Positions 1-34,776 of a stretch of 37,090 nt of DNA are shown here, in pieces. The DNA comes from an uncultured Clostridia bacterium (GTDB taxonomy: Bacteria; Bacillota; Clostridia; Oscillospirales; CAG-272), in assembly GCA_945485605.1 (NCBI GenBank), contig CALYSG010000001.1, positions 1 through 37,090 of the forward strand, in the 5' to 3' direction. The notes under the pieces were generated by a model. That model saw only the letters and a program-made list of their open reading frames with translations, was not told where the DNA came from and did not search any database. The position numbers and the translations under genes are program-made. Positions within the stretch are counted from its first letter, which is position 1. Each line of letters begins with the position of its first letter.

Positions 1-197
1 TCTTTCCCTTTCAGTGAATAATCCGCGAGGTTTGGGTGCAGGCACTGCCTGCCCGCAAGCCTTTGAAAAGGCTTGACCTAAACTTTAAAACAGGCGAAAA
101 GATGAAGCCTGTCGACCTTCCCGCTGACATCAGCTCCGGGTGAAATCTTCACACTTCGGTGAATAAACTGCGAGGATCGGATCCCGGCACTGCCGGG
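1..197. repeat. Hairpin-dense intergenic repeat element (REP/MITE-like), copy A
   Basis: About 150 nt aligns by eye with 8990-9160. Shared blocks are caagcctttgaaaaggcttg (56-75 vs 9012-9031), aaactttaaaac, and ccgggtgaa.tcttcac.t(t)tcggtgaataaac.gcgag (136-174 vs 9093-9131). GC hairpins are also shared: gcaggc-act-gcctgc (38-52, identical at 9140-9154) and cccggc-act-gccggg (183-197). A partial second unit (cagtgaataatccgcgagg) lies at 12-30. No ORF; the element starts 1 nt after the stop of the minus-strand gene ending at 199. Confidence 0.6.
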
Positions 198-6006: not shown

Positions 6007-8409
6007 TTATCTGACAACTATATTGACTATGCGGTTAGGCACCGAGATCTCCTTGACGATCGTTTTTCCCTCTATGAAGGGCAGAACGCGCTCGTCGGCC
6101 TTAGCCTTTGCAATAGCCTCTGACGCGGGGCAATTCATCGGAAGCTCGACCGTTGCGCGGAGCTTTCCGTTTACCTGAACGGCGACCTCCACCGTGTTGT
6201 CGACAGTCTTGCTCTCGTCGTACTCGGGCCAGGGAGAGAGCGAGCAGAGCTTCTTTTCGCCAAGGCTCTCCCATATTTCCTCGCAGATGTGAGGAGCAAA
6301 CGGGCAGAGCAGGCGGACAAAGACCCCGAGCTCTTCGCGAGTGAGAGTTCCCGCCTCGTAAATTTCATTGATGAGTGACATCATTGCGGCGATCGCCGTG
6401 TTGAATTTCATACTTTCGATGTCCTCGGTGACCTTTTTTACCGTTTTATGGAAGCTCTTTGCGAGCGCAGGAGTCTCGCCCTTGCCCGCAAGAAGGTCTG
6501 TAAGACCGGCAACGCGGTCAAGGAAGCGTTTGCAACCCTTGACTCCGTTTTCAGACCACGGAGCGGCGGCGGTGTAGTCACCCATGAAGAGGGTGTAGAC
6601 GCGTAGGACATCGGCACCGTATTCGTCAACGACATCGTTCGGATCGACTACGTTGCCCTTTGATTTTGACATTTTCTCGCCGTCGGGACCGAGAATAAGT
6701 CCCTGCGCCGTGCGCTTTGCGTATGGCTCGTCGCATGGGACTACGCCGAGATCGTAGAGGAACTTGTGCCAGAATCTCGAATATATGAGGTGGCGCGTGA
6801 CGTGCTCCATGCCTCCGTTGTACCAGTCGACGGGCATCCAGTAATTGAGCTTTTCGGGATCGGCAAGGCATTTTTCGTTGTGCGGGTCGATATAGCGGAG
6901 GAAGTACCACGACGACCCCGCCCACTGCGGCATCGTGTCGGTCTCGCGGTGAGCCTCACCGCCGCACTTCGGGCATTTGCAGTGAACGAAGGAATCGATC
7001 CGTGCGAGCGGGGACTCGCCGTTCTGACCGGGAGCGAATTCCTTCATTTCGGGAAGCCTTAACGGAAGCTCCTCATAGGGTACCGCTACCATGCCGCATT
7101 TCGGGCAGTGAATGATCGGGATCGGCTCACCCCAGTATCTCTGGCGGTTGAAAGCCCAGTCCTTCATCTTGTACTGAACTCCGCCCTCGCCGACGCCGAG
7201 CTTTTCAAGCTCCTCGATCGCCCGTGCGATCGAGTCCTTCTTATTTGTATAGCCGTTGAGGAAGCCCGAATTGACCATCTCGCCGTCACCGGTGTAAGCC
7301 TCTTTTTCGGTGTCGCCGCCTTTTATCACCTCGATCACCTCAATGCCGAACTTCTTCGCGAAGTCGAAATCGCGCGGATCGTGTGCGGGGACCGCCATTA
7401 TGGCACCCGTGCCGTATCCCATCATAACGTAGTCTGCGATGTAGATCGGGATCTCCTTGCCCGTGAGGGGATTCTTTGCGGAGAGCCCCTCGAGCTTCAC
7501 GCCGGTCTTATCCTTGACGAGCTGGGTGCGTTCGAATTCTGTTTTTTTCGAACATTCGGCGCGGTAGGCTTCGACCGCGTCCATATTTTTTATCCTGTCC
7601 GAATATTTGTCGATCATAGGATGTTCGGGCGCCATGACCATGAAGGTAACGCCGAACAGAGTGTCGGGGCGGGTCGTGTAGATACGCAGCTTATCGTCGG
7701 TGCCGGTAAGGCTGAAGTTGACAAATGCGCCCTCGCTCTTGCCGATCCAGTTGATCTGCTGCTGCTTGATGTTCGGAAGGTAGTCTGCATTTTTCAGGCC
7801 CTCAAGCAGTCTGTCGGCGTATTTCGTTATGCGGAGGTACCACACGTCCTTCGATTTCTGAACGACGTCGGAGTGGCATATATCGCACTTGCCGCCCTGG
7901 CTGTCCTCGTTCGAGAGGACGACCTTGCAGGTAGGGCAGTAGTTCACGAGAGTCTTGTCTCGGAAAGCAAGCCCGTTCTCGAACATTTTGAGGAAGATCC
8001 ACTGTGTCCAGCGGTAGTAGTCCTCCTCGGTCGTGTCTATGACTCTGTCCCAGTCGAAGGAGAATCCGACGCGGCGGAGCTGAGAGGTGAATCTCTCGAT
8101 ATTCTTATCGGTGACGGTGCGGGGGTGCATACCCGTCTTTATGGCGTAGTTCTCGGTCGGGAGTCCGAAGGCGTCAAATCCGATCGGGAACATGACGTTG
8201 TAGCCCTCCATGCGGCGCTTGCGCGAGATGACCTCAAGTCCCGAATAAGCCTTTATGTGTCCGACGTGCATGCCGGCACCGGAGGGGTAGGGGAACTCGA
8301 CGAGAGCGTAGAATTTCTTCTTATCGCTCTTGTCCTCGGCGTGGAATGCCTTTTCCGCGTCCCATCTCGCCTGCCATTTTTTTTCGATATTCTTAAAATC
8401 GTTTCTCAT
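6007..8409 (-). CDS. leuS: Leucine--tRNA ligase
   Basis: 800-aa ORF. It has a class I HIGH-type motif (GAGMHVGHIKAY), a KMSKS motif (GEKMSKSKGNVV), Zn-binding CxxC pairs and a CP1 editing-domain-sized insert. The N-terminus (IEKKWQARWDAEKAF) is typical of LeuS. Confidence 0.97.
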   Translation of the reverse strand: MRNDFKNIEKKWQARWDAEKAFHAEDKSDKKKFYALVEFPYPSGAGMHVGHIKAYSGLEVISRKRRMEGYNVMFPIGFDAFGLPTENYAIKTGMHPRTVTDKNIERFTSQLRRVGFSFDWDRVIDTTEEDYYRWTQWIFLKMFENGLAFRDKTLVNYCPTCKVVLSNEDSQGGKCDICHSDVVQKSKDVWYLRITKYADRLLEGLKNADYLPNIKQQQINWIGKSEGAFVNFSLTGTDDKLRIYTTRPDTLFGVTFMVMAPEHPMIDKYSDRIKNMDAVEAYRAECSKKTEFERTQLVKDKTGVKLEGLSAKNPLTGKEIPIYIADYVMMGYGTGAIMAVPAHDPRDFDFAKKFGIEVIEVIKGGDTEKEAYTGDGEMVNSGFLNGYTNKKDSIARAIEELEKLGVGEGGVQYKMKDWAFNRQRYWGEPIPIIHCPKCGMVAVPYEELPLRLPEMKEFAPGQNGESPLARIDSFVHCKCPKCGGEAHRETDTMPQWAGSSWYFLRYIDPHNEKCLADPEKLNYWMPVDWYNGGMEHVTRHLIYSRFWHKFLYDLGVVPCDEPYAKRTAQGLILGPDGEKMSKSKGNVVDPNDVVDEYGADVLRVYTLFMGDYTAAAPWSENGVKGCKRFLDRVAGLTDLLAGKGETPALAKSFHKTVKKVTEDIESMKFNTAIAAMMSLINEIYEAGTLTREELGVFVRLLCPFAPHICEEIWESLGEKKLCSLSPWPEYDESKTVDNTVEVAVQVNGKLRATVELPMNCPASEAIAKAKADERVLPFIEGKTIVKEISVPNRIVNIVVR

Positions 8410-8435
8410 TTATTACTGTATCCTTTCTGAGATGA

Positions 8436-8774
8436 TCAAGCCATGCTTTCGGGGAGCTTCTTTCCGCCTACAAGGTGAAAATGAAGGTGGCGGACGCTCT
8501 GGCATCCGTCCTCGCCGCAGTTTGTAATGACGCGGTAGCCGTTTGTAAGTCCTTCAAGGTCTGCGATCTTCGGTATGGCTTCAAAGACCGCGGCGACCGC
8601 CGAAGAATTCTCGGCGGTGATCGAGTCCGCCCCCGCGATATGCTCCTTCGGGACGACGAGAACGTGTACCGGAGCCTGCGGGTTTATGTCGCGGAAGGCG
8701 TAGACCTTATCATCCTCGTAGACCTTCGATGACGGGATCTCGCCCGCGATGATTTTGCAGAAAAGGCAATCCAT
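8436..8774 (-). CDS. HIT-family (histidine triad) nucleotide-binding protein
   Basis: 112 aa counted from the internal ATG at 8774, which is preceded by a GGAGG ribosome binding site. The sequence runs MDCLFCKIIAGEIPS...VHVLVVPKEH...VRHLHFHLVGG and contains the H.H.H histidine triad. The longer tracked ORF (to 9068) runs through repeat DNA and is rejected. Confidence 0.9.
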   Translation of the reverse strand: MDCLFCKIIAGEIPSSKVYEDDKVYAFRDINPQAPVHVLVVPKEHIAGADSITAENSSAVAAVFEAIPKIADLEGLTNGYRVITNCGEDGCQSVRHLHFHLVGGKKLPESMA

Positions 8775-8825
8775 AGTATAAACCTCCGTATATGATATAT
8801 TTTTATATTTTTTGATTTCAAGAAG

Positions 8826-9180
8826 AGTTATAACCGCCGGCGGGCAGTGCCCGCCTGTCGTATCGCTAACAGAAGTAATGCCTTCGGAGTAGCTTCGGCG
8901 CTTTTTCTTTGGCACAACAGGCGCAAAGAAAAAGCTTTGCAAAAAGAAAGCGCCGTAAAGGGGAGTTTCGCTCTCTGCGGAGAGCGACCAAGGCTCCGCC
9001 TTTGGAAACCGCAAGCCTTTGAAAAGGCTTGAGCCAAACTTTAAAACGGGCGTGGGGCGGTCGTTCACCTCACCTTTTTGCCGACATTGTTTCCGGGTGA
9101 AGTCTTCACCTTTCGGTGAATAAACCGCGAGTCAGGGGTGCAGGCACTGCCTGCGGCTGCGGGCACCGCCTGCCTGCCTG
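8826..9180. repeat. Hairpin-dense intergenic repeat block (REP/MITE-like), copy B plus extra hairpins
   Basis: This block shares the modules listed for copy A. It also has additional hairpins: ggcgggc-agt-gcccgcc (8840-8856), cgctctc-tgcg-gagagcg (about 8968-8985), and a 12-bp gctttttctttg/caaagaaaaagc stem (about 8899-8936). It lies inside the 5' UTR between the T-box terminator and the hit start. Confidence 0.6.
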
Positions 9181-9183
9181 CCG

Positions 9184-9468
9184 AAAATAAAAAAGCCGCA
9201 GTCAGATCTGACTGCGGGACGGAAAAAACTTTCCGCGGTACCACCCGTGTTCGCACAAAGATAAACCCTTGTACGCACTCAATACCCCTTAACGCGGGAA
9301 ACGCGACGGTCTGCGGGGAGGCAAAAGCTTACCCTTCTTCGCCGAGAGCAGAGAAATGAATCCTCAGCCGGAGTGAGCCGTGACCGGTCTCGCGCGGGGC
9401 ATCTCAGCAAAACTGCCCCTCTCTGTGGCGGAGGTCCGGTCACCTTTTCCGGCGACTCAATGATATAT
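9184..9468 (-). promoter_or_regulatory. T-box riboswitch leader, probable Leu (CUC) specifier
   Basis: The minus strand carries the conserved T-box sequence AACACGGGTGGTACCGCGG (9251-9233). It is followed by a terminator, CCGCAGTCA-GATC-TGACTGCGG plus CTTTTTTATTTT (9217-9184). Stem I can be drawn as GCCGG/CCGGC, TGACCGG/CCGGTCA and GGGGCA/TGCCCC, with a CAGAGAG AG-bulge and a GCUGAGA distal loop. The 3' side of the specifier loop, CGG-CUC-A-CU, places CUC (Leu) followed by a purine, which is consistent with leuS downstream. Confidence 0.85.
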
Positions 9469-9475
9469 TAAAAGA

Positions 9476-9504
9476 AATATATCACATTTATCCCCGATTG
9501 TCAA
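9476..9504 (-). promoter_or_regulatory. Sigma-70-type promoter driving the T-box leader
   Basis: The minus strand reads TTGACA (9504-9499), a 17-nt spacer, then TATATT (9481-9476) with a TGn extended -10. It sits just upstream of the Stem I start. Confidence 0.55.
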
Positions 9505-9554
9505 GGCTTTTATCCCCGATTTTTTCCGAAGCAGGTGAAAACCCTTCGTTTTTG

Positions 9555-9583
9555 TTGACAAACGAACTTTATAATGGTATAAT
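9555..9583 (+). promoter_or_regulatory. Strong sigma-70-type promoter of the TerB/ATPase/helicase cassette
   Basis: Consensus TTGACA (9555-9560), a 17-nt spacer, then consensus TATAAT (9578-9583) preceded by TGG (extended -10). A GGGAGGAGGG ribosome binding site lies before the ATG at 9628. Confidence 0.6.
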
Positions 9584-9627
9584 GATTCATTACAATATTA
9601 CAATAATTCAAAGGGAGGAGGGCCGAC

Positions 9628-11271
9628 ATGGAGAAAAAAGGTGATGCCTTTGATATGGACGATTTCTGGGCAATAGAAAAGCTCGTGCCGAAGAAAGAAA
9701 AGCCCGCCGTTTTGCGCCGTTCCTCCGACATTTCGGCAATAGAGATAACCTCCGACCTTACGCAAAACGCGGGCGGCGGTAATGAGGGAGACGCGCTTAC
9801 CGTAAAATACGTCCCCCGTCGCCGTGAGACCGCCGCACCGGACGACGAATACGAGCCTTCGTCGCCGCTGATCGGGAGCGTGAAGATCTACCGTTGGAAG
9901 AACAGTTACAACTATTACGAGGAATTCAGACGCGACGCCCTTCGCCTTTGCAAACGGAGCGGCAGACCGAGCGCGCATATCGCCTTCTTTTCCTACGTTC
10001 CTCAGTATGTTCAGTTAAGTGACGCGCAGCTTGAATATTACCTTTACTTCCGCGACTGCGTGAGAGCGGGAGCTTGCCCGAGGGAGACCGATTACAGCTA
10101 CGTTCTGCTTCTGATCTACGAGATAATTAATCTCGGAGGGGATGCCGACGTGAAGGAGGGACAGGAGCTCCTCTGCCGCATATGGGAGGGATATCGCGAC
10201 GTTTATCCGAGGCTTGACCGCTATCTTGCCGACTGGATATGCGACTATTCGCTGATCCATCATCTGCCTCCCCCCGTCGGGATATGCGACCGCGGGCTTG
10301 CCGACAACTCGACGCTCAAAGAATTTTACGTCTATTACGGCAAGGGAGAGGGTATCTCGCTCGGATACGCGCACGCGCTGATGCGTTTTTGTTCGGGCTA
10401 CGATTACAGAAAGAGCAAGTTTGCCGCGGGAGAGAACCTTGCGCTCTATGACGAGCACCTTGCCGGCGCACTTGCGAGGGTCATAGAGACTTGCTCTGAC
10501 GGGGATCAGCTCTTATCTGCGGCAGCTCTGACCGAGAACCGCATCACGCGCGACGCCTACTCGGGGGCTCTGTGCGCGTCCGAGATGAAGCGCAGACTCG
10601 AGATCAGCTTCTGCTCCTTTTCACGTTCGCACGAGCTGAGGTTCCTTGTTGCCGACGTGCTGAAATATGCCGAGAACAGACTCCGAGGCTATCTCGGTGT
10701 AAAATCAAAGCTGAGCGTTTTCGGGATCCCGAAGCCGCTCGCGGATGCCGTTGACGCATATTTCAACGAAAAACTGCCGCAAAGACGCCGGGAAAAGGAA
10801 ACGTCCGCGGACACCATAGCAAAGGAGCCTTACGCTAAGCTCTATGACGCGCCGTCATCTCCCCTTTCGGAAGAGAACGCCGCGAAGATCGAAGAGAGGT
10901 CCTGGGGGACGACGAAGATCCTTGTCGAGGCATTCGATATGGAGGAGGATAGCGGGACAAGCACTTCACCGGCGAAGGAGGTACTTACCGCCCCTGTGCT
11001 TGATTCTCTTCCCGAAGAAGAGATAAGCGATAAAGAGAGGCTTTACGCATTATTTGACGCGGATATGCTTGCCTTTGTGAGAGCCGCGCTCGTCGGAGAT
11101 GTTTTGGCTGAGGAAAGGATAGCGGGGAAACAGGGTAAACTGAAGGATGCCTTTGCAGATGATATAAACGGAATCGCCGCCGATGTGATAGGCGACGTGA
11201 TACTTGAGGATATCGGCGTGGGATATGCCGTTATTGAAGATTACAGGGAGTTGTTTGAAGATGACCGATAA
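9628..11271 (+). CDS. sngA: TerB-N / TerB-C domain protein (Shango SngA-like)
   Basis: 547-aa ORF. The segment FFSYVPQYVQLSDAQLEYYLYFRDCVRAG....DYSYVLLLIYEIINL matches my recollection of the TerB-N signature (F.sY.P.Y..l...Q..yYlywR ... y.fLY.YE.IN). The C-terminal segment DDINGIAADVIGDVILEDIGVGYAVIEDYRELF resembles TerB-C. There is no TM segment or signal peptide. The gene symbol is given by architecture only. Confidence 0.8.
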   Translation: MEKKGDAFDMDDFWAIEKLVPKKEKPAVLRRSSDISAIEITSDLTQNAGGGNEGDALTVKYVPRRRETAAPDDEYEPSSPLIGSVKIYRWKNSYNYYEEFRRDALRLCKRSGRPSAHIAFFSYVPQYVQLSDAQLEYYLYFRDCVRAGACPRETDYSYVLLLIYEIINLGGDADVKEGQELLCRIWEGYRDVYPRLDRYLADWICDYSLIHHLPPPVGICDRGLADNSTLKEFYVYYGKGEGISLGYAHALMRFCSGYDYRKSKFAAGENLALYDEHLAGALARVIETCSDGDQLLSAAALTENRITRDAYSGALCASEMKRRLEISFCSFSRSHELRFLVADVLKYAENRLRGYLGVKSKLSVFGIPKPLADAVDAYFNEKLPQRRREKETSADTIAKEPYAKLYDAPSSPLSEENAAKIEERSWGTTKILVEAFDMEEDSGTSTSPAKEVLTAPVLDSLPEEEISDKERLYALFDADMLAFVRAALVGDVLAEERIAGKQGKLKDAFADDINGIAADVIGDVILEDIGVGYAVIEDYRELFEDDR

Positions 11272-12625
11272 TAATACGCAGAAGATACCGAAAAGGATAC
11301 TTGCCTCGCTACTCGCCTCGGTCTCGGCGGGGGTGGTCCCGCGCGCGGGTGCGCCCTATATCGCGATAGGCAGGGAGGACGAGATCGCCGCACTGCTTTC
11401 CGACCTTGAGCTCGTAAATGAGGGCGGAGGCTCTATGCGCTTCCTTATCGGGCGCTACGGAAGCGGCAAGAGCTTCCTTATCCAGCTGATGAGGGGATAC
11501 GCGCTTGAGCGGGGGTTTGTGACCGCCGACTGCGATCTGTCGCCCGAAAGAAGGCTCTACGGCACGGGCGGGAGCGGAGTTGCGACCTACCGCGAGCTTA
11601 TGAAGAACCTTGCCACGAAGTCCTCGCCGGACGGTGGAGCTCTGCCGAAGCTGATCGCGAGGCATATTTCGGAGCTTCGGATCTCGCTTTCCGAAAAGGG
11701 GATAGAGAGCGATTCTCCCGCTTTTTATCAGTCGCTTGAGGCGGCGATACTCGAGGAGCTGCGCGACATGGAATTTCTTGTCGGAGGCTTTGACTTTGCG
11801 AAGGTCATAACCGGATATTTCAGAGCCTACAACTCGGACGACGAGGATAAAAAGAGCGCATGCCTTCGCTGGCTCCGCGGCGAATACGCGACGAAAACAG
11901 AGGCGCAGTCCTCGCTCGGCTTCCGCGTGTCCTCCATAATCTGTGACGAGAACTGGTACGATTTTCTGAAGCTCTGGGCGGCTTTCGTCCGCAGGATGGG
12001 TTACAGGGGGCTTGTCGTTTTCATCGACGAGTGCGTGAACCTCTATAAGATCACTCACAGGGTCAGCCGCGAGAACAACTATGAGAAGATCCTCTCGATG
12101 TTCAATGACACCTTGCAGGGAAGAGCGCCGGGGCTTGATCTGATACTGGGCGGGACCCCGCAGTTCCTCGAAGATACGCGGAGAGGGCTTTTCGGCTACG
12201 AGGCGCTCCGCTCGCGCCTCTGTGACAGCCGTTTCATGACGGAGGGATATAAGAATCTTATAGGCCCCGTGATAAGGCTCAGGCGCCTTTCGGACGACGA
12301 GCTTTTTGCGCTTATCGTGAGAGTAACTAAGCTGCACGGGCAGAATTATAACTGGGAACCGAGAATAAGCACCGCGGAGATGACCGAGTTTTTGCGGATC
12401 TGCCTGTCGCGCGCGGGAGCCGATTCGATGATAACTCCGCGTGAGATGCTCCGCGACTATATGACCGTGCTGAATATACTTTACCAGAATGAAAACGTGC
12501 GTTTTGCCGACCTTACGGGGCAGGTGACGCTTAAGACCGCCGCCGACGAAGAGACCGGGAAGCAAGTCCCGCCGCCGCAGTCGGCGGAAAAAGGAAAATT
12601 CGACCCGGAGGATCTTGATCTCTGA
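11261..12625 (+). CDS. sngB: P-loop ATPase (DUF2791/BrxD-like, Shango SngB-like)
   Basis: 454 aa counted from the ATG at 11261, which overlaps the upstream stop by 11 nt (ATGACCGATAA). It has Walker A GRYGSGKS, Walker B GLVVFIDE, and an N-terminal segment (RILASLLASVSAGVVPRAGAPYIAIGRE) as in the DUF2791-type ATPases I recall. The tracked start at 11204 lies inside the upstream gene and has no ribosome binding site. Confidence 0.8.
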   Translation: MTDNNTQKIPKRILASLLASVSAGVVPRAGAPYIAIGREDEIAALLSDLELVNEGGGSMRFLIGRYGSGKSFLIQLMRGYALERGFVTADCDLSPERRLYGTGGSGVATYRELMKNLATKSSPDGGALPKLIARHISELRISLSEKGIESDSPAFYQSLEAAILEELRDMEFLVGGFDFAKVITGYFRAYNSDDEDKKSACLRWLRGEYATKTEAQSSLGFRVSSIICDENWYDFLKLWAAFVRRMGYRGLVVFIDECVNLYKITHRVSRENNYEKILSMFNDTLQGRAPGLDLILGGTPQFLEDTRRGLFGYEALRSRLCDSRFMTEGYKNLIGPVIRLRRLSDDELFALIVRVTKLHGQNYNWEPRISTAEMTEFLRICLSRAGADSMITPREMLRDYMTVLNILYQNENVRFADLTGQVTLKTAADEETGKQVPPPQSAEKGKFDPEDLDL

Positions 12626-12645
12626 CCTGAAAGGAAAATCAAAAA

Positions 12646-14883
12646 ATGACCGAAGCCGACAGAATATTCGACCGTTTCCCGGATTTTATCAAAGAATATA
12701 TTTACAGTCACTCGTGGGAATCTCTGCGTGAGGTTCAGATCGCGGCGGCAGAGTGCATATTTGAGACCGATCACGATCTGCTCCTGACCTCTTCGACGGC
12801 GAGCGGAAAGACCGAGGCGGCATTTTTCCCAGTGCTTGCCGAGCTTTGCCGAGATATGCCGACGAGCGTCGGGGTGCTGTATATCGCGCCGCTCAAGGCT
12901 CTTATAAACGACCAGTTTCTCAGAATAGAGGAGCTTCTTGAGGAATCCGGGATCCCCGTGACGCATTGGCACGGGGATGTTGCCCGTTCTCATAAGCGAA
13001 AATTGCTCGAGGATCCGCGAGGGATACTTCAGATAACGCCGGAATCGCTCGAGAGCCTTCTTATCAACCGCTCAAACGATATAGGAAGACTTTTTTGCGA
13101 TCTGCGCTTTGTTATAATCGACGAGATCCATACCCTGACCGGGTCTGACAGAGGAAATCAGATAATATGCCAGCTCTCGCGACTTGACCGCGCGATCGGG
13201 CGCTCGCCGAGGCGCATAGGGCTTTCCGCGACGGTCGGAGATCCGGCACTTGCCGCGGACTGGCTCTCGGGGGGCAGAGGCGTGACCGTCGATATACCGA
13301 AGCTTCCGCCGGAGAAGCTTCGCTGGCGACTCGGGCTCGAGCATTTTTATATTCAGAACCCAAGCCCCGTGCAGGCTGACGTCGAAGGGGTAAAGTTCAA
13401 GCTTCCGAAGCTGCCTGATGCCGAGATCGACGCGGGGTATGAGTACCTTTACGACTGTGTGAAGGACAAGAAGGCGCTCGTATTCTCCAACTCGCGTGAG
13501 GAGACCGAATATCTGACGGCGACTCTGCGTCAGATAGCAAGGGCACGCGGCGAGCCCGATGTGTTCCTTATACACCACGGAAACCTTTCCGCGGCGCTCC
13601 GCGAGGAAGCCGAGACGAAGATGAAAAATGAAGAGATCCGCGCCGTGACCTGTGCGACTGTCACCATGGAGCTCGGAATAGATATAGGAAAGCTCGAACG
13701 CATCGGACACCTCGGTTCGCCGTGCTCGGTTTCGTCCTTCCTTCAAAGGCTCGGCAGATCGGGCAGGAGAGGAGATCCGCCCGAGATGATGATGGTCTTT
13801 CGCGAGGAGGAGGCTCTTCCGAACGCGCCGCTCCCCGAGCTTATACCCTGGGAGCTGCTGCGTGCGATCGCGATAATACAGCTCTATCTCGAAGAGAGAT
13901 TCATAGAGCCGCCGAAGAGAAAGAGCCTGCCGCTCAGCCTTCTCTTTCATCAGACGCTGTCGGTCCTCGCCTCGTCGGGCGAGCTGACTCCAAAGAGACT
14001 TGCGGAGAGGATCCTGTCGCTCCCGCCGTTTTCGCAGGTAAGCCGCGAGGACTTCAGGACCCTTCTTGTTTCGATGCTGGAAAACGACTACATCGAGATG
14101 ACGGAGGAGAAGGGACTTATCGTCGGACTTGCCGGCGAGAGACTGATCGGGACGTTCAAGTTCTACGCGGTATTCAAGGACACGGAGGACTTCACGGTGC
14201 GCGCCGGCTCGGACGAGATAGGCACTATAACGACGCCCCCTCCGGTCGGAGACCGCTTCGCCCTCGCCGGAAGAGTATGGGAGGTAGAGGAGCTCGATAT
14301 AAAACGCAGGCTCATCTATGTGAAGCAGGTCGAGGGCAAGATGGAGGTCTCGTGGCCGGGAGACTACGGCGAGATCGACACGCGGATCCTTACCCGTATG
14401 AGGCAGGTGCTTAAAGAGGATACGGAGTATCCTTACCTGAAGCCGAACGCCCGCGCGCGCCTTGCCGCGGCGAGGAACATCGCCCGTGCGAGCGGCATGA
14501 CCGAAAGGTCGCTCGTATGTCTCGGGGGATACACGTGGTGCCTTTTCCCGTGGCTCGGGACAAGGTCTTTCAGAACACTGAGAAAGTACATCTCGGCGAA
14601 TTCGGCGAGATACGGTATTACGGGACTTGAGTTTGACGGGTGCTGTTATATGACCTTCAGAATGGATAAGGCGACCGACCGCGAGCTAATATCGGGGCTT
14701 TCTGACAGGATCGCGAGAGAGGGGATAGATACCGCCGCGCTCGTCGCGTCGGGCGAGGTGCCGCTTTTCGAGAAGTACGACTCTCTGTTACCCGCGTCAC
14801 TTCTGCGCCGACAGTACGCCGCCGACCGTCTCCGCACCGACGAGGTTGAGGCGAGAATAAGAGAGATCCTCGCGGAATACTGA
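12646..14883 (+). CDS. sngC: Lhr-type DExH-box superfamily 2 helicase (Shango SngC-like)
   Basis: 745-aa ORF. Motifs are motif I TASGKTEAAFFP, the Lhr-like YIAPLKALINDQ, motif II IIDEIHTL (DEIH), motif III GLSATVG and motif VI QRLGRSGRRG. A C-terminal extension of about 350 aa follows. It starts 20 nt after sngB, with a GAAAGGAAAA ribosome binding site. Confidence 0.88.
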   Translation: MTEADRIFDRFPDFIKEYIYSHSWESLREVQIAAAECIFETDHDLLLTSSTASGKTEAAFFPVLAELCRDMPTSVGVLYIAPLKALINDQFLRIEELLEESGIPVTHWHGDVARSHKRKLLEDPRGILQITPESLESLLINRSNDIGRLFCDLRFVIIDEIHTLTGSDRGNQIICQLSRLDRAIGRSPRRIGLSATVGDPALAADWLSGGRGVTVDIPKLPPEKLRWRLGLEHFYIQNPSPVQADVEGVKFKLPKLPDAEIDAGYEYLYDCVKDKKALVFSNSREETEYLTATLRQIARARGEPDVFLIHHGNLSAALREEAETKMKNEEIRAVTCATVTMELGIDIGKLERIGHLGSPCSVSSFLQRLGRSGRRGDPPEMMMVFREEEALPNAPLPELIPWELLRAIAIIQLYLEERFIEPPKRKSLPLSLLFHQTLSVLASSGELTPKRLAERILSLPPFSQVSREDFRTLLVSMLENDYIEMTEEKGLIVGLAGERLIGTFKFYAVFKDTEDFTVRAGSDEIGTITTPPPVGDRFALAGRVWEVEELDIKRRLIYVKQVEGKMEVSWPGDYGEIDTRILTRMRQVLKEDTEYPYLKPNARARLAAARNIARASGMTERSLVCLGGYTWCLFPWLGTRSFRTLRKYISANSARYGITGLEFDGCCYMTFRMDKATDRELISGLSDRIAREGIDTAALVASGEVPLFEKYDSLLPASLLRRQYAADRLRTDEVEARIREILAEY

Positions 14884-14901
14884 AAAAAGTTGCGAATACC
14901 C

Positions 14902-14930
14902 TTGAAATCGCACGAAATGTGTGCTATAAT
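14902..14930 (+). promoter_or_regulatory. Sigma-70-type promoter of the S-box/metK unit
   Basis: TTGAAA (14902-14907), a 17-nt spacer, then TATAAT (14925-14930) with a TGC extended -10. Confidence 0.6.
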
Positions 14931-14948
14931 AAAGTCAACAATACACGA

Positions 14949-15076
14949 TCTTATCAAGAGTGGCGGAGGGACCGGCCCTTTGAAGCCCGACAACCTGCGG
15001 TTTTTGCCGTAAGGTGCCAAATCCGGACAGATGAGGTATTTGAAGCCCGCTTCAATGCCGAAGCGGGCTTTTTCTT
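14949..15076 (+). promoter_or_regulatory. SAM-I (S-box) riboswitch with intrinsic terminator
   Basis: Conserved S-box blocks are present: TCTTATCAAGAGTGGCGGAGGGACCGGCCCTTTGAAGCCCGACAACC and GGTGCCAAATCCGGACAGA. An expression-platform hairpin GAAGCCCGCTTC/GAAGCGGGCTTT plus a T-run follows (15042-15076). It lies directly upstream of metK. Confidence 0.9.
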
Positions 15077-15090
15077 ACGGAGGAACAAAA

Positions 15091-16332: not shown

Positions 16333-16659
16333 ATGTTTGAGACCGTCTTTGCGTGTATTATGGCAATGCTTTCTGTGTTCGGGGCTTACTGCATGGTAAG
16401 GCTCCTTATCTCGGAACTCGTGTCGCCCTTTTCAACTGCGATAGAGATCTGCGATTCGGATGACGCCGAGAGCATATTCGAAAGGATCGGTGAGGCGTCA
16501 TTGCGCTTCCCGGAGGGCAGGATATGCCTGCTTGTCAATGAAAACAGTCCTGCAAGAGAGCTGTTAAGGACTCTCGATATCGGCAGTCGTGCGAAAATAT
16601 TCATTATAAAGGATCCTGCGGAGGAAAAAAGTGGCGGAGAGCGACAGTCTCGGCAATGA
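16333..16659 (+). CDS. Hypothetical small protein with an N-terminal TM helix
   Basis: 108-aa ORF. A GGAGG ribosome binding site sits 8 nt upstream. The N-terminus is hydrophobic (FACIMAMLSVFGAYCMVRLLI). The 3' end overlaps the recD2 GTG start by 29 nt. I do not recognise a family. Confidence 0.5.
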   Translation: MFETVFACIMAMLSVFGAYCMVRLLISELVSPFSTAIEICDSDDAESIFERIGEASLRFPEGRICLLVNENSPARELLRTLDIGSRAKIFIIKDPAEEKSGGERQSRQ

Positions 16660-20378: not shown

Positions 20379-20584
20379 GCGGATTCTTCCGAAGAAAAAG
20401 GTGATCCGACGCGCTCCGGCGCGGTATGATACGGACGTTTCTGCGTTTGCACGCCTCAGACTCCGACCGGGAGATCTCCGAAGTCGCGGAGGGACCGGAA
20501 AAGAACGGCGGCGACGGACGCGGGCTTTTATCAAGTCGTTTGCCCGAAAGGCGAACGCAACTATCTGTCAGGAGGAAAATCCAG

Positions 20585-23500
20585 ATGAAGCAAAACCTAT
20601 TCAGGCGAATTCTTGCGTTAGTATTGGCGCTTTCATGCCTTGCCGGATGCGTCGTCGCGGCTTCTGCCGCAGAGACGTCATCGGGAAGCACTTCGGGCGG
20701 CTCGACGACCGATACGACGCTTGCCGACGTAAGGGAGCTGCTTAACGCACTCTCCTACGCCGATTATTCGACGAAGGAGCCCTTTGCGAGTGCAAAACCG
20801 GGAAGAGAACCGATAGTTATCGACGCGCTCAGCTACAATGCCGAAAAGACCGACTCGAAGGTATACCGTGTTAAAGTCGATGAAAAGACCGGTATTGCCA
20901 CAATAGTCGATGCTTCCTATGTGCCCGCCGAGGGCGAGTCGATCGGACTCTTCGTCGGTGACTCGGGCGAGCTTGCTTATAAGCTCAATATACCTTCGAC
21001 CGCAAAGTACAACATTAAAATAGAGTACTACCCCGCGCTTGAACTCGTGGATGCCGAGGGCAACTCGATCTCCACCGACAAGTCGGGTTCCATTGAGCGC
21101 ATACTTAAGATAAACGGTACGATACCCTTCTCCGAGGCGCGCTACCTTGTGCTTCCGAAGATATGGAAGAACGTCTACACGATCAAGATGGAGACCGTTA
21201 AGACGAATGTTGCCGCCGACGGCACCAAGACCTACGAGTATGCCGATGTTACACCTTACATAGAGAAGGCGGAGAAGTGCGGCATAAAGTACACCGTCGC
21301 CGCAGACCGTTCCTCGATAACACTTGAATTACCCGAGGAAGGCTGGTCGCTCGATACCACGGGAAAGATGCAGGAGAATGCCCTTCGCCTCTTCACGCAG
21401 GATATCGACGGCAACGAGATCCGCAGCAACATGATACGCGTCCCCGAATGGCTCGAGTATAACTGCAAGGATGTCGACGGCTTCTATTCAAGGAACTTTG
21501 AGTTTGTATTCCTGCCGGGTGCAAACGAGATAAGCCTTCTCGCGAAGAGCCAGGCGATGGTCATAAAGTCGATAACGCTCTGCCCCGCCGAGGATCGCCC
21601 GTCTTATGAGGACGTGAAGAAGAGCTATGCCGAGAAGGGCTTCACCGCCGGAACCGGTAAGCTGAAGTTCGAGGCGGAATTTCCCTTCGCAACGACCTCG
21701 CAGACGATCTATCCGATCGAGGATTCTTCTTCCGCGATCACCTCTCCCTCCGACACGTCAAAGACTATCCTCAACACGATAGGCGGAGAGAAATGGCAGA
21801 CCTCGGGTCAGAGGATCAGATATCGCTTTACTGTCGATAAGGACGGCTTATATAATATTGTAACCCGTTACCGCCAGAACGTTAACGACGGTATCTTCTC
21901 GTCGCGTGTGCTGTACCTTTACAGCGACGGACTTGATAAGGACGCCGACGGATATTACAACGGTGTTCCTTTTGCCGAAGCCACCAACCTCAGATTTGAG
22001 TTTTCGACCGATTGGCAGGTCTCTCCGCTCAAGTATGCAAAGGAGATCAAGCAGGAGGACGGCAGCTCAAAGTGGGAGAGCGTCAACCTTGAGTTCTACT
22101 TCAAGGCGGGCGTGACCTACACGATGGAGCTTGAGGTCGCCCTCGGCGACATGGGCTCGATCGTCAGCGCGGTAAGCACTTCGCTTACTAACGTAAACAG
22201 TTACTACCTTAATATATTGAAGCTCACCGGAGCCGAGCCCGACCAGTACCGCGACTACGGTTTCTACCGTATAATGCCCGATACCATGCAGGGACTCGTA
22301 GTTGAGTCGAGAAGACTCAGCGACATCTCGGCGGAGCTTAAGAATATCGCCGGTCAGAGCAGCTCAAACGCAGCTACACTTGATAAGATAGTCCGACTCC
22401 TTGAGGAGATGGGAACCGACGAGGACAACGTTGCAAAGAACCTTGACCAGCTGAAGACCTACATAGGTACTCTCGGTACATGGATCAACGACAATAAGAC
22501 TCAGCCGCTTCAGTTCGACTATTTCGTCGTTCAGGCTCCCGGAGAAGCGCTTCCCGCCGGAAAGGCAAACTTCTTACAGACGATCGGACACGAGTTCATG
22601 AAGTTCTGGTACAGCTTCTGGCGTAACTACAACCGCATGGGTGCGACCAATGCCGGTGAGAACGAAGAGGCTATCGATGTCTGGCTTGCCTACGGTCGTG
22701 ACCAGACACAGGTCATCAGAAGCCTTATAAACAATGACTTTACTCCCCAGACCGGACACCTTGTCAACCTTAAGCTCGTGGCGGGAGGCTCGCTGCTTCC
22801 TTCGATACTTGCCCAATCGGGTCCCGATGTCTATATCGGTATCGGTGAGGATAACATCATCAACTATGCTATCCGCGGAGCTCTTATGAATATAGAGAAC
22901 TTCGAAGGATTTTATGAGCTGACCGACACCTACCTGCGTGAGCATAAGACGGTTGACGATCTTATATATGATCTGAAGGCTCAGAATTATATAATAACCG
23001 GCGAAGCGGGTAAGGAGATCAAGGCTATGTCGACCGACGGCGTCGCGATGTACACGATAAAGTACAACGCCGACGGCTCCGGCGTATGCACCGACCGCGC
23101 GGGTAAGACATATTACAGCTTCACCGCGGAAGGATGGCTCTATGAGACCGGTTCGACCTTCAGCGGCAGGACTTATACCTATAAGTATCAGCTCGATGAA
23201 AACGGCAATAAGATAAAGAACGATAAGGTCCAGTTCAACGAGGCGGCGATGTATACGCTCGGACTTCCCGATGCCGACAACATCATGCACTACTACGGTC
23301 TCCCCGAGACGCAGACCTTCTCGATGATGTTCGTGAGAAACGACATCCTTGCAAACCTCGGGATAGAGATCCCGAAATCGTGGGACGACGTTCAGGCGGC
23401 AATACAGACGCTTGAGTCGAAGAATATGCAGATCGGTATGTCGAACGACTATAAGATCTTCCTCTATCAGAAGGGAAGCAAGCTCTTTGCCGACGACGGA

Positions 23501-24490
23501 ATGAGGATCAACCTTGACTCGAATATCGCGCTCGACTCCTTCGATTATATGTGTAACCTCTTCACGATGTATTCATTCCCGTATAAGTACGACTTCTCGA
23601 ACCGTTTCAGAACGGGCGAGATGCCGATAGGTATCGCGGGATACAACGGAACCTATAACCAGCTCATCGTTTTTGCGACCGAGATCCGCGGACTCTGGTC
23701 GTTCTACCCGATCCCCGGTATCGCGACCTACAAGACCGACGATGCGGGCAGATATGTCTACGAGGACGGCAAGAAGGTCGTTGAAAACATCAATAATGTT
23801 GCCGTTGCCACGGTTTCGGCTATCTCGATGATAAACGGATGCAAAAATACCGAGGCGGCATGGTCGTTTATGAAGTGGCACGTCGGTCCCGAATGTCAGG
23901 TCAACTACTCGAACGAGATGGTAGCTATACTCGGTGACTCGGCAAAGCACGCTACGGCAAACATCACGGCTCTCGAAAGTATGCCGTGGACGACCGAGGA
24001 GTATAAGCAGCTCTCGGCACAGTTCAACAACCTTGCGTCAATACCCAACTACCCCGGATCGTATATTATAGGCCGTTATACGAAGTTCGCATTCCTTGCC
24101 GCTTACGATAAGAACGCGAACCCGACGACCTCACTGCTCAAGTATATAAACACGATCAATAAGGAGATCACGAGAAAGCGCGATGAGTTCGGACTTGAGA
24201 CTCTTGAGATCGGTGAGACGCTTGCAAGCAAGAGAATAGCTCAGGCGGAGGCTAAGCTCGACTCGCTCAGCGACGGAGCAAAGGCTCAGTACAAGACAGA
24301 GATCGAGGCGCTCAGAAAAGCGATAGCGAACCTTGATTCACAGAAGGCAAGGGTATCGCTTGAGAAGATCGAGGCGCTTGAAGCGGCATCCGACGGACTC
24401 CGCGCGACGCAGTATTCGGATCTCTTTGAGGTCGCGGACTTCATCGATACTGCGGCAGCGGCTCTGAGAGATTACAGATTCTCGTATTGA
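20585..24490 (+). CDS. Giant extracellular solute-binding lipoprotein (CUT1-type SBP core with about 650 aa of extra N-terminal modules and a C-terminal coiled coil)
   Basis: 1,301 aa counted from the ATG at 20585, which has an AGGAGG ribosome binding site. The signal peptide has a lipobox (LSCLAGC) followed by an S/T/G linker. Two beta-rich modules of similar style follow (YNIKIEYYP...ISLLAKSQAMVIKSITL and LYNIVTRYRQ...TYTMELEVALG). From about aa 695 the sequence is SBP-like (IDVWLAYGRDQTQVIRSLINNDFTPQTGHLVNLKLVAGGSLLPSILAQSGPDVYIG) and has a beta-rich insert. The tail is Ala/Lys/Glu-rich and helical. The tracked start at 20426 has no ribosome binding site or signal peptide. Confidence 0.85.
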   Translation: MKQNLFRRILALVLALSCLAGCVVAASAAETSSGSTSGGSTTDTTLADVRELLNALSYADYSTKEPFASAKPGREPIVIDALSYNAEKTDSKVYRVKVDEKTGIATIVDASYVPAEGESIGLFVGDSGELAYKLNIPSTAKYNIKIEYYPALELVDAEGNSISTDKSGSIERILKINGTIPFSEARYLVLPKIWKNVYTIKMETVKTNVAADGTKTYEYADVTPYIEKAEKCGIKYTVAADRSSITLELPEEGWSLDTTGKMQENALRLFTQDIDGNEIRSNMIRVPEWLEYNCKDVDGFYSRNFEFVFLPGANEISLLAKSQAMVIKSITLCPAEDRPSYEDVKKSYAEKGFTAGTGKLKFEAEFPFATTSQTIYPIEDSSSAITSPSDTSKTILNTIGGEKWQTSGQRIRYRFTVDKDGLYNIVTRYRQNVNDGIFSSRVLYLYSDGLDKDADGYYNGVPFAEATNLRFEFSTDWQVSPLKYAKEIKQEDGSSKWESVNLEFYFKAGVTYTMELEVALGDMGSIVSAVSTSLTNVNSYYLNILKLTGAEPDQYRDYGFYRIMPDTMQGLVVESRRLSDISAELKNIAGQSSSNAATLDKIVRLLEEMGTDEDNVAKNLDQLKTYIGTLGTWINDNKTQPLQFDYFVVQAPGEALPAGKANFLQTIGHEFMKFWYSFWRNYNRMGATNAGENEEAIDVWLAYGRDQTQVIRSLINNDFTPQTGHLVNLKLVAGGSLLPSILAQSGPDVYIGIGEDNIINYAIRGALMNIENFEGFYELTDTYLREHKTVDDLIYDLKAQNYIITGEAGKEIKAMSTDGVAMYTIKYNADGSGVCTDRAGKTYYSFTAEGWLYETGSTFSGRTYTYKYQLDENGNKIKNDKVQFNEAAMYTLGLPDADNIMHYYGLPETQTFSMMFVRNDILANLGIEIPKSWDDVQAAIQTLESKNMQIGMSNDYKIFLYQKGSKLFADDGMRINLDSNIALDSFDYMCNLFTMYSFPYKYDFSNRFRTGEMPIGIAGYNGTYNQLIVFATEIRGLWSFYPIPGIATYKTDDAGRYVYEDGKKVVENINNVAVATVSAISMINGCKNTEAAWSFMKWHVGPECQVNYSNEMVAILGDSAKHATANITALESMPWTTEEYKQLSAQFNNLASIPNYPGSYIIGRYTKFAFLAAYDKNANPTTSLLKYINTINKEITRKRDEFGLETLEIGETLASKRIAQAEAKLDSLSDGAKAQYKTEIEALRKAIANLDSQKARVSLEKIEALEAASDGLRATQYSDLFEVADFIDTAAAALRDYRFSY

Positions 24491-24525
24491 CATAGCAACG
24501 CAAATAACGATGTAAGGAGATAATT

Positions 24526-25473
24526 ATGTCACAGAATACGACAAAGAAAAAAGCTGTGGCGCGCAAGGATATGTCGAAGCTCCAGTGGACGCTGAAGGAA
24601 ATGAAGCGTAACTGGGCGGGATATGTGATGATCGCTCCCTTCGTGATCCTATTCACACTCTTCACGGTATGCCCTGTGTTGCTTTCGGTGGTATTCAGTT
24701 TCACAGACTTCAATATGTTGCAGGTACCGAATTTCGTCTTTCTCGATAACTATGCGAGACTGTTCCTTGATGACGATATATTCCTCATAGCCTGCAAGAA
24801 TACCTTTATATTCGCGTGTATCGTCGGACCCGCGTCCTACATTATGTCTCTTATGGTCGCGTGGTTCATAAACGAGCTGTCGCCGAAGATCAGATCGCTT
24901 GTTACCCTGGTCTTCTACGCGCCGTCAATTTCGGGTGAGGTCTACCTCATCTGGAAGACACTCTTCTCGGGAGACGCCTACGGCTGGGCAAACGCCTGGC
25001 TTATGAAGCTCCAGATAATAACCGAGGAGATCAACTGGTTCGAAAAAGCCGAATACGTAATGCCCCTTTGTATCATAGTTGCTCTATGGCAGTCCCTCGG
25101 AACGGCGTTCCTTTCGTTCATCGCCGGTCTTCAGGGTATCGACCGCTCACTATACGAGGCGGGAGCCGTTGACGGTATCAGAAACCGTTGGCAGGAGCTT
25201 TGGTACATAACCCTTCCGAGTATGAAGCCTCAGCTGATGTTCGGTGCTATCATGTCGATCACGAACTCGTTCGGCTTCGGATCGGTCGTTACCGCACTTT
25301 GCGGCTTCCCGTCTGTCGACTACGCGGCGCATACGATAATGCACCATCTGAACGACTACGGAAGTACGCGATTTGAGATAGGTTATTCGTCAACGATCGC
25401 TGTGGTTCTGTTCGCTATCATGATATCGGCGAACCTGCTGGTCAAAAAACTGATTTCGAAGGTAGGTAAGTGA
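24526..25473 (+). CDS. Carbohydrate ABC transporter permease (MalF/UgpA-like), pair 1
   Basis: 315-aa ORF with multiple TM segments. It has an EAA loop, YEAGAVDGIRNRWQELWYITLPSMKP, and an AAGGAG ribosome binding site. Confidence 0.92.
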   Translation: MSQNTTKKKAVARKDMSKLQWTLKEMKRNWAGYVMIAPFVILFTLFTVCPVLLSVVFSFTDFNMLQVPNFVFLDNYARLFLDDDIFLIACKNTFIFACIVGPASYIMSLMVAWFINELSPKIRSLVTLVFYAPSISGEVYLIWKTLFSGDAYGWANAWLMKLQIITEEINWFEKAEYVMPLCIIVALWQSLGTAFLSFIAGLQGIDRSLYEAGAVDGIRNRWQELWYITLPSMKPQLMFGAIMSITNSFGFGSVVTALCGFPSVDYAAHTIMHHLNDYGSTRFEIGYSSTIAVVLFAIMISANLLVKKLISKVGK

Positions 25474-25474
25474 T

Positions 25475-26347
25475 ATGGCAAGATTAAGAACAAGAAAACA
25501 CAGAGTCGTCCTCAGCCGTTCTACGGGAGGCGATATCGGAATTACACTTATCCTTGTGATACTCGGCGTATTTATGTTCCTGCCGATGTGGTACGCGATC
25601 GCGCAGTCATTCAAGCCGCTTGACGAGCTTTGGCTGTTCCCGCCGAGATTCATAGTCTACAGACCTACTTTCAAGAACTATCAGGACCTCTTCGTTCAGA
25701 TGAATGTTTCGTGGGTGCCTTTCTCAAGGTACATATTCAATACGGTCCTCGTTTCGGTCACCGGAACGGTCGGAAACCTCTTCCTCTCGTCGATGGCGGC
25801 GTACGCCTTCTCGAAGATCCACTTCCCCGGAAGAAAGTGGATGTTCAAGACGATAAGAATGTCCCTCATGTTCCACTCGACGGTTACGTCGATCACAAAC
25901 TACTTCATCATGAGCCGTCTCGGCTGGGTAGATACCTACCTTGCAAAGATAGTCCCCGCCTTCTGTACGACTCTCGGTCTTTACCTTATGAAGCAGTTCA
26001 TGGATTCGCAGGTGTCCGAGTCGGTGCTCGAATCTGCACGTCTTGACGGTGCGAGCGAGTTCAGGACCTTCTGGATGATAGCGATGCCTATGGTAAAGCC
26101 CGCGTGGCTGACTCTTATCATTTACTGCTTCCAGGGCCTCTGGAATGCGGGACAGTCTATCTACATTCAATCCGAGCAGCTCAAATCATTTAACTACGCA
26201 ATTCAGCAGATCGTCGCCGGAGGTATCAAGCGTGCCGGTGCCGGTGCCGCGGCGCAGGTCATCATGATGATGGTCCCAATACTGGTATTCGTCGTAACCC
26301 AGTCAAACATCATCGAGACGATGGGCTCCAGCGGTATGAAGGATTAA
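25475..26347 (+). CDS. Carbohydrate ABC transporter permease (MalG/UgpE-like), pair 1
   Basis: 290-aa ORF that starts 1 nt after the previous stop. EAA loop: ESARLDGASEFRTFWMIAMPMVKPA. Confidence 0.92.
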   Translation: MARLRTRKHRVVLSRSTGGDIGITLILVILGVFMFLPMWYAIAQSFKPLDELWLFPPRFIVYRPTFKNYQDLFVQMNVSWVPFSRYIFNTVLVSVTGTVGNLFLSSMAAYAFSKIHFPGRKWMFKTIRMSLMFHSTVTSITNYFIMSRLGWVDTYLAKIVPAFCTTLGLYLMKQFMDSQVSESVLESARLDGASEFRTFWMIAMPMVKPAWLTLIIYCFQGLWNAGQSIYIQSEQLKSFNYAIQQIVAGGIKRAGAGAAAQVIMMMVPILVFVVTQSNIIETMGSSGMKD

Positions 26348-26362
26348 AAAAGGAGGCAGAGT

Positions 26363-28558: not shown

Positions 28559-28571
28559 TCGGAGGGATAAT

Positions 28572-34757: not shown

Positions 34758-34776
34758 GAAAGGAGAAGCAAAAGAA

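Follow-up and report, generated by a model that had tools for sequence, protein, structure and literature searches.

A Shango-type three-gene operon held at one site between core genes in related gut Clostridia

The reference systems for Shango are those of Escherichia coli and Pseudomonas aeruginosa PA14 (Millman et al. 2022; Johnson et al. 2023). In P. aeruginosa PA14, genes for a TerB-like protein, an ATPase and a helicase stand in the same order as in the locus described here and reduce the efficiency of plating (EOP) 10-100-fold (PMC10250203). Shango was also found in E. coli, with an anti-phage phenotype (bioRxiv 10.1101/2022.05.11.491447). As late as September 2025, papers still gave its mechanism as unknown, and Shango remains one of many validated defence systems of this kind. 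Here we analyzed a stretch of 37,090 nucleotides (nt) from an uncultured Clostridia bacterium (contig CALYSG010000001.1), referred to as the 37-kb window, in which three adjacent genes form a cassette that we assign to Shango (SngA/SngB/SngC) with high confidence. A first-pass annotation of this DNA had proposed a Shango-type system with an unresolved sensing and effector mechanism. The second statement agrees with the literature up to 2025-26, and the first is borne out by profile searches, by the fold match of SngC to Lhr and by co-conservation of the trio elsewhere. Taken as a whole, the locus is in our judgement likely to be a vertically inherited Shango operon whose three cytoplasmic proteins act jointly on nucleic acid.

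The cassette shares with the E. coli and P. aeruginosa systems its three families and their order, near full-length matches to the Sng profiles and intact catalytic motifs. It differs from them in having a divergent SngA (147 bits), whose linkers are long and disordered and whose N-terminus carries a motif specific to Clostridia. The genomic setting differs as well. Shango of P. aeruginosa lies in the variable cDHS1 hotspot (PMC10250203) and that of E. coli in genomic islands, whereas the Clostridia locus has core-operon neighbors, is syntenic across species and coincides with no defence hotspot or genomic island. Moreover, a phage phenotype was measured for the P. aeruginosa and E. coli systems, while the Clostridia copy is known from sequence alone.

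Two further groups of systems invite comparison. Type 2 BREX contains a homologous ATPase-helicase pair, BrxD and BrxHI, and BrxHI aligns over SngC amino acids (aa) 8-723. However, the methyltransferase, PglZ and kinase partners of BREX are lacking here, and a TerB_N/TerB_C protein is present instead. Bunzi BnzA and Dionysus DinB share with SngA the Ter-superfamily label and the unknown role of the TerB-type component. Unlike SngA, they contain TerB proper and have transmembrane or pore-forming partners; SngA has TerB_N and TerB_C only, no transmembrane segment and DNA-type ATPase partners.

The cassette comprises the following features, with all coordinates given as positions in the window unless prefixed by the L-number of another locus.

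9555-9583, plus strand: sngABC promoter, TTGACA-17-TATAAT with extended TG, 12/12 consensus match
9613-9622, plus strand: ribosome-binding site of sngA, GGGAGGAGGG, read from the sequence
9628-11271, plus strand: sngA, 547 aa, TerB_N/TerB_C protein (open reading frame (ORF); PADLOC SngA)
9904-10260, plus strand: TerB_N domain, SngA aa 93-211 (Pfam PF13208, E-value 8e-16)
10885-11250, plus strand: acidic TerB_C-like tail, SngA aa 420-541 (PF15615, 18.5 bits, E 0.0025)
11261-12625, plus strand: sngB, 454 aa from ATG, P-loop ATPase of the BrxC_BrxD family (PF10923)
12646-14883, plus strand: sngC, 745 aa, Lhr-core-type SF2 DExH helicase

The three genes are co-oriented behind the single upstream promoter. 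Direct reading shows that the end of sngA and the start of sngB overlap by 11 nt (ATGACCGATAA) and that 20 nt separate sngB from sngC; the sngB start is taken at the ATG, where the ORF lister instead begins at an upstream TTG (11204). The start-stop overlap suggests that sngA and sngB may be translationally coupled. The -35, TG and -10 elements of the promoter are unchanged across four species-level lineages, and the surrounding spacer is variable. Thus, the promoter, the co-directional arrangement and the spacing, all of which the first-pass annotation had described, were found as claimed. With frames spanning nearly the whole family profiles, sngA-sngB-sngC is an intact tricistronic operon.

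The profile searches that the first-pass annotation had called for gave PADLOC Sng models as the top, near full-length matches for all three genes. Gene 1 matched SngA (PDLC03958) with E 2.4e-43 and 147 bits over aa 73-543 (profile 64-523 of 528), with no runner-up. Gene 2 matched SngB (E 4e-164, 545 bits, profile 3-426 of 439) and gene 3 matched SngC (E 2.3e-241, 801 bits, profile 5-714 of 720). Their runners-up were BrxD (3.7e-47, 160 bits) and BrxHI (1.2e-125, 418 bits), in line with the earlier remark that a related BrxD/BrxHI pair exists. In this respect the locus opens no new category, and standard tools, PADLOC or DefenseFinder for example, would detect it.

Both enzymes retain the motifs that had been attributed to them. 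In Pfam, SngB matches PF10923 (BrxC_BrxD) end to end (E 1e-154) and also AAA_16; its Walker A (GRYGSGKS) occupies aa 64-71 and its Walker B (VVFIDE) aa 252-257. SngC matches DEAD and Helicase_C and carries ASGKT, DEIH at aa 159, SAT at aa 194 and QRLGRSGR at aa 367. SngA, SngB and SngC are all free of nuclease, toxin and membrane domains.

The solved proteins nearest to SngC in sequence are Mycobacterium smegmatis Lhr and Bacillus subtilis MrfA. The best fold match is likewise M. smegmatis Lhr (5v9x; E 1.9e-20, template modelling (TM) score 0.52, over the whole length), followed by MrfA (6znp). Lhr-type enzymes are 3'-to-5' translocases. SngC shares with Lhr-core and MrfA (YprA), represented by the best solved matches 5v9x, 7lhl and 6znp, the DExH motor and a full-length fold alignment, but sequence similarity is limited to the RecA domains (SngC aa 9-385). 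SngC always comes with SngA and SngB; neither a ligase nor an MrfB-type exonuclease accompanies it, and the C-terminal extension of Lhr is likewise missing. Moreover, the NCBIfam equivalog models of Lhr-type and ligase-associated helicases score far below their cut-offs on SngC (TIGR04121, 217 vs 850 bits; PRK13767, 186 vs 849; PRK09751, 113 vs 1496). Therefore, SngC, although Lhr-core-like in fold, is a relative of the Lhr helicases and not a member of them.

The cassette turned out to be firmly anchored in its neighborhood. All 14 contigs retrieved through an identical MetK or an identical SngC carry cassette genes (14/14), and sngC lies directly upstream of metK wherever both are present. 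The cassette thus occupies the same site in every contig of this species in which metK has upstream sequence. In three sister lineages (L095, L098 and L101) the gene order is identical, namely cinA-leuS-hit, then sngABC, then metK-orf108-recD2-comF. Since LeuS and MetK of these lineages are 95-96% and 94-95% identical to those of the window, the lineages represent different species of one genus-level clade. Identity to the window is 91-92% for SngB, 94% for SngC and 89-91% for RecD2, and 67-74% for SngA.

Evolutionary rates, estimated by the Nei-Gojobori method between the window and the three sister lineages, point the same way. The sng genes show a synonymous divergence (dS) of 0.63-1.16, compared with 0.49-1.06 for LeuS, HIT, MetK and RecD2, and 1.04-1.74 for orf108 and ComF. 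The ratio of nonsynonymous to synonymous divergence (dN/dS) is 0.075 for SngB and 0.04-0.05 for SngC, and these values (0.04-0.08) resemble those of MetK (0.04-0.06) or RecD2. SngA (0.15-0.20) evolves at about three times the rate of SngB and SngC. The guanine-cytosine (GC) content of the cassette equals that of the flanks, with no anomaly. We found no integrase or transposase in the window or the sister loci, and PADLOC and Pfam scans revealed no second defence system in the window; PADLOC matches to RecD2, ComF and HIT are generic domain matches. The accessory or defence-island, mobile context in which Shango is usually found, which is not a strict criterion, is absent from this locus.

Flank-like GC and dS lead us to reject recent horizontal transfer. 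Together with the shared site and the lack of mobile genes, they indicate vertical inheritance since before the species split. The locus is under strong purifying selection and is not a recent mobile insert in this lineage. What is unusual about it is that it is fixed between core genes across related gut Clostridia, with sngB and sngC evolving as slowly as housekeeping genes.

The genes occur in the same sngA-sngB-sngC order in eight other loci, as expected for a co-conserved trio: the three sister lineages, L103, L104, L187, L188 and the plasmid locus L190. The chromosomal copies outside the sister lineages occupy different core contexts, downstream of PFOR near dnaX-recR (L103), at mnmE/rplS (L104), between holB and nrdR (L187) and between matE and lgt/nrdR (L188). 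A further SngC-like gene, 62% identical, lies just upstream of rpsL-fusA-tuf, the str operon, and 7 kb from metK (L021). Judged by Pfam labels, no integrase or recognizable defence gene is present within 9-10 kb of these five copies. Across Clostridia lineages, SngC is 69-83% and SngB 67-82% identical, and the identity of SngA falls to 38-52%. Between L187 and L188, SngC is more conserved than NrdR (76% vs 67% identity).

Beyond the genus, 107 more distant loci among the matches listed have a MetK 64-77% identical and at least 3 kb of sequence upstream of metK. Of these, 106 lack the cassette in the 10 kb preceding metK, the exception being L021. In these relatives the metK-recD2-comF synteny persists and leuS is not adjacent. 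On the other hand, SngB homologs appear in 697 plasmid records, of which 542 are conjugative, and among the matches listed their neighbors are commonly annotated as a TerB N-terminal protein and a DEAD/DEAH helicase. The L190 copy, on Clostridium estertheticum plasmid pCF002-344, adjoins relaxase and IS110 transposase genes. No relatives of SngB or SngA were found in phage records or IMG/VR viral contigs.

The plasmid copies show that the Shango family is mobile and, combined with the absence of the cassette near metK and the non-conserved leuS-metK adjacency in distant relatives, they point to acquisition at some earlier time. The cassette would then have been acquired or assembled at the base of the genus-level clade or before it. 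Thus, the view in the first-pass annotation that the cassette is an accessory insertion in a core region holds in a deep sense only. The comparison of the leuS-metK interval that it had proposed places the cassette at the same site in all three sister lineages, with flank-like dS and GC and no mobile genes. Such lack of variability among close relatives comes near to what that annotation had itself named as refuting its reading.

In L190, a gene at L190 11596-14142, starting 17 nt after sngC, encodes an 849-aa 'ATP-binding cassette domain-containing protein', a candidate fourth component of this plasmid variant that the chromosomal Clostridia copies are without.

SngA is the fastest-evolving of the three proteins. 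It is cytoplasmic and acidic (isoelectric point 4.9), and its last 80 residues (aa 468-547) contain 20 D+E vs 9 K+R. Of the two domains proposed for it earlier, the TerB_N signature is clear and the TerB_C-like tail is sub-threshold (18.5 bits vs a cut-off of 26.3), although PF15615 is on record for most full-length SngA homologs, from 73% identity downwards. No canonical TerB domain was reported in SngA, even at E up to 10. The maximum 19-residue hydropathy of SngA is 1.43, and none of the three proteins has a transmembrane-like segment.

An AlphaFold2 (AF2) model of SngA based on 108 homologs has a predicted local distance difference test (pLDDT) score of 84. It comprises a confident folded core at aa 70-390, of which the conserved part at aa 73-360 has pLDDT >90, a compact C-terminal domain at aa 468-547, and disordered segments at aa 1-70 and 441-464. 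Foldseek searches against PDB gave no significant match (best E 0.1). Only winged-helix-like matches of about 70 residues were seen, with E ~1 and an uncertain region; we gave them no weight and do not claim DNA binding by SngA on their basis. Sequence searches of PDB with SngA and with SngB found no solved relative. With its confident fold, many invariant polar residues and no significant solved match, the SngA core is a good structural target.

Differences in SngA between species are concentrated in aa 1-80, 361-400 and 441-520, stretches that largely coincide with low-confidence, linker-like segments. The folded core is the least variable part, and aa 201-360 are almost invariant. Within the species of the window, 40 SngA residues vary, the ratio of nonsynonymous to synonymous polymorphism (pN/pS) is 0.17-0.32, and synonymous diversity reaches about twice that of the neighboring genes in two strains. 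We rejected gene-wide positive selection on SngA, given these pN/pS values, dN/dS of 0.15-0.20 and the location of variable sites mostly in low-pLDDT linkers. The pattern fits relaxed constraint on the linkers, with local recombination possible.

Within the predicted disordered N-terminus of SngA, the motif D-x-F-W-x-I-x-x-L-x-P (aa 11-21; 9658-9690) is kept in at least 90% of the 108 Clostridia homologs. It looks like a docking peptide for some partner protein. The SngA family is large, with 1777 clusters at 50% identity (E up to 0.001). A solitary homolog at L105/L106 9001-10713 (42% identical, with both TerB_N and TerB_C) stands without sngB and sngC in its vicinity and is flanked by a FliB_C gene and polysaccharide-synthesis genes.

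How might the three proteins work together? SngC would be the motor and effector, an Lhr-core-like 3'-to-5' DNA translocase or helicase. SngB, a BrxD-like AAA_16-type P-loop ATPase, may serve as an ATP-dependent switch or loader, and SngA, with its TerB_N core, acidic TerB_C tail and disordered linkers, as the sensor or adaptor that sets specificity. The complex might then use ATP to remodel or displace replication intermediates of invading phage (or plasmid) DNA. Since the trio lacks nuclease, toxin and membrane domains, remodelling seems likelier than degradation or membrane killing, and the roughly threefold faster evolution of SngA points to it as the specificity or adaptor subunit. We regard defence as probably the selected function in this lineage. 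The specific division of labor among SngA, SngB and SngC, deduced from domain content, is a tentative suggestion.

Several considerations weigh against this picture. The non-degradative mode of action is deduced from domain content only, and the phage phenotype exists only for the P. aeruginosa and E. coli homologs. Housekeeping-grade conservation and core-gene neighborhoods are atypical for defence and fit genome maintenance equally well. As the SngA core has no significant solved match (best E 0.1), its role is a guess, and the AlphaFold model of SngC is of modest quality (pLDDT 67). Finally, since SngA varies mostly in linkers and its pN/pS is below 1, it bears no arms-race signature of positive selection.

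These points lead to the strongest rival explanation, namely that SngABC in gut Clostridia serves mainly genome maintenance (DNA repair, R-loops or replication stress), with anti-phage activity absent or a by-product. In its favor, all four species-level lineages carry the locus at a fixed, syntenic site, with flank-like dS and with SngB and SngC dN/dS equal to those of MetK and RecD2. All six independent Clostridia contexts are core-gene neighborhoods, in which Pfam labels reveal neither an integrase nor another defence gene within 9-10 kb. The higher conservation of SngC than of NrdR between L187 and L188 and the lack of relatives on phage records or viral contigs are in keeping with such a role. 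Moreover, Lhr and MrfA, the closest solved relatives of SngC, are DNA-repair helicases, to which the trio would then be functionally akin. However, homologous trios are anti-phage in P. aeruginosa and E. coli, and the family is patchy, being missing within 10 kb upstream of metK in nearly all the distant loci. The numerous plasmid records, most of them conjugative, and the L190 copy beside relaxase and transposase genes also argue against it, as does SngA, whose threefold faster evolution would be unusual for a repair factor. On balance we consider genome maintenance an unlikely main function. Equally unlikely in our estimate is its more explicit form, in which Shango of a large group of gut Clostridia (Oscillospiraceae-like) has become a quasi-core module, inherited vertically beside essential operons under housekeeping-grade purifying selection, whose Lhr-like helicase, licensed by SngA and SngB, would handle replication or R-loop intermediates, phage or plasmid exclusion being secondary. 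Even with defence as the preferred function, the locus is a natural case of a "defence" trio behaving like core genes, as its shared site in four species, the dN/dS of its ATPase and helicase (0.04-0.08) and its core neighbors in six Clostridia lineages show, and it bears on a possible cellular DNA-processing role of Shango.

A second rival places SngA at the membrane, where it would sense phage-induced perturbation and trigger its two partners. The discovery paper put this forward on the grounds that TerB is membrane-associated (bioRxiv 10.1101/2022.05.11.491447), and later surveys repeated it. SngA, however, has TerB_N and TerB_C only, without canonical TerB; its hydropathy maximum falls short of a transmembrane segment, it has no lipid-binding domain, and both its partners are DNA-type enzymes. 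We therefore regard membrane surveillance as very improbable. There is next to no likelihood that the ATPase and helicase genes are left over from, or form a satellite of, type 2 BREX (Pgl-like) and that gene 1 is an unrelated neighbor: BrxD and BrxHI are indeed the second-best PADLOC matches, and the NCBIfam model BREX_BrxD (NF033438) hits SngB, but with 157.8 bits, far under its cut-off of 350, the Sng profiles score far higher (545 vs 160 and 801 vs 418 bits), no PglX, PglZ or PglW-like gene occurs among the ORFs scanned outside the cassette in the 37-kb window, and gene 1 overlaps gene 2 by 11 nt and accompanies it in eight other loci. By its score, SngB is a relative of the BrxD family and does not belong to it.

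The Shango operon is bordered on both sides by riboswitch-controlled genes and on the left, beyond the T-box, also by a repeat block.

9504-9476, minus strand: divergent hit-leuS (T-box) promoter, 11/12 match
9469-9212, minus strand: T-box leader of hit-leuS (RF00230, 71.7 bits, E 2.2e-15)
14884-14901, plus strand: 18-nt gap from the sngC stop to the metK -35, without a terminator
14902-14930, plus strand: metK promoter, TTGAAA-17-TATAAT, 11/12 match
14948-15037, plus strand: S-adenosylmethionine (SAM; S-box) riboswitch aptamer of metK (Rfam RF00162, 70.3 bits, E 1.2e-14)
15042-15079, plus strand: S-box terminator hairpin (15042-15071) and U-tract, -23.9 kcal/mol, z -4.5
~8815-9165, strand not assigned: dispersed palindromic repeat block between the T-box terminator and hit

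Rfam matches on both sides thus agree with the T-box and S-box flanks read earlier. The T-box score of 71.7 bits lies below the Rfam gathering score of 93, but the match is full-length, and in the sequence the specifier position carries CUC-A. A candidate Spot 42 RNA at 9187-9288, which overlaps the T-box terminator and scores 23 bits where 80 are required, is spurious. Among the four species, the promoter, the T-box and the sngC-metK junction hardly vary.

At the sngC-metK junction, whose arrangement is kept in the four species, a search of the interval from the sngC stop (14883) to the metK -35 (14902) detected neither a terminator-like site nor a stable hairpin. Folding agrees, with -6.5 kcal/mol and z 0.32 for 14876-14950, no better than shuffled sequence; the absence of a terminator before the metK promoter had been noted already in the first-pass annotation. 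The first strong terminator downstream of sngC is that of the S-box. Transcripts passing the sngC stop would run into the metK S-box leader and meet its SAM-dependent terminator first. Since such read-through must cross the metK promoter and the S-box leader, the fate of the transcript would depend on SAM.

A direct repeat of 13 nt, TTTATCCCCGATT, immediately precedes the sngA promoter at 9487-9499 and 9509-9521, with the copies 22 nt apart and bracketing the -35 of the minus-strand T-box promoter. The repeat, a candidate operator, is partly kept in sister species.

Between metK and recD2 lies orf108 (16333-16659), which encodes 108 aa without a family match and overlaps the recD2 start. Its position is kept in all four species, and its sequence evolves fast (66-75% identity, dN/dS 0.10-0.19).

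The repeat block, described already in the first-pass annotation, is not part of the cassette and marks the left edge of the neighborhood. It is species-specific, being absent or different in the sister species, and has relatives at window 1-194, L098 4603-4849 and L191 1732-2052. The family is modular and palindromic, with modules including GCAAGCCTTTGAAAAGGCTTGA, CCGGGTGAARTCTTCAC..TTCGGTGAATAAAC.GCGAG and GCAGGCACTGCCTGC. Metagenome contigs of the same species break or diverge inside the block on both sides, and nine of ten contigs with an identical HIT protein, among the matches listed, stop within it at ~8917-8935. Among the listed contigs of this kind we found no clean empty hit-leuS/metK site. 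In L191, positions 7240-10182 correspond to window 9154-6213, and hit-leuS, 96.8% identical, is joined to EamA, MarR-ABC-ABC and rve transposase genes. The breakpoint falls inside the dispersed repeat, the T-box is missing, and the same sample also yields a sng-metK contig. L191 thus reflects a chimera of the assembly or a genuine rearrangement; it is not a clean empty site.

Farther downstream, positions 20426-35763 of the window hold a locus resembling ABC sugar uptake, with permease genes alongside giant proteins. These include a 1354-aa protein with SBP_bac_1 only near its C-terminus and a 2061-aa DUF5696 protein. A 731-aa protein with NHL, TPR and Yip1 domains is encoded in the same locus.

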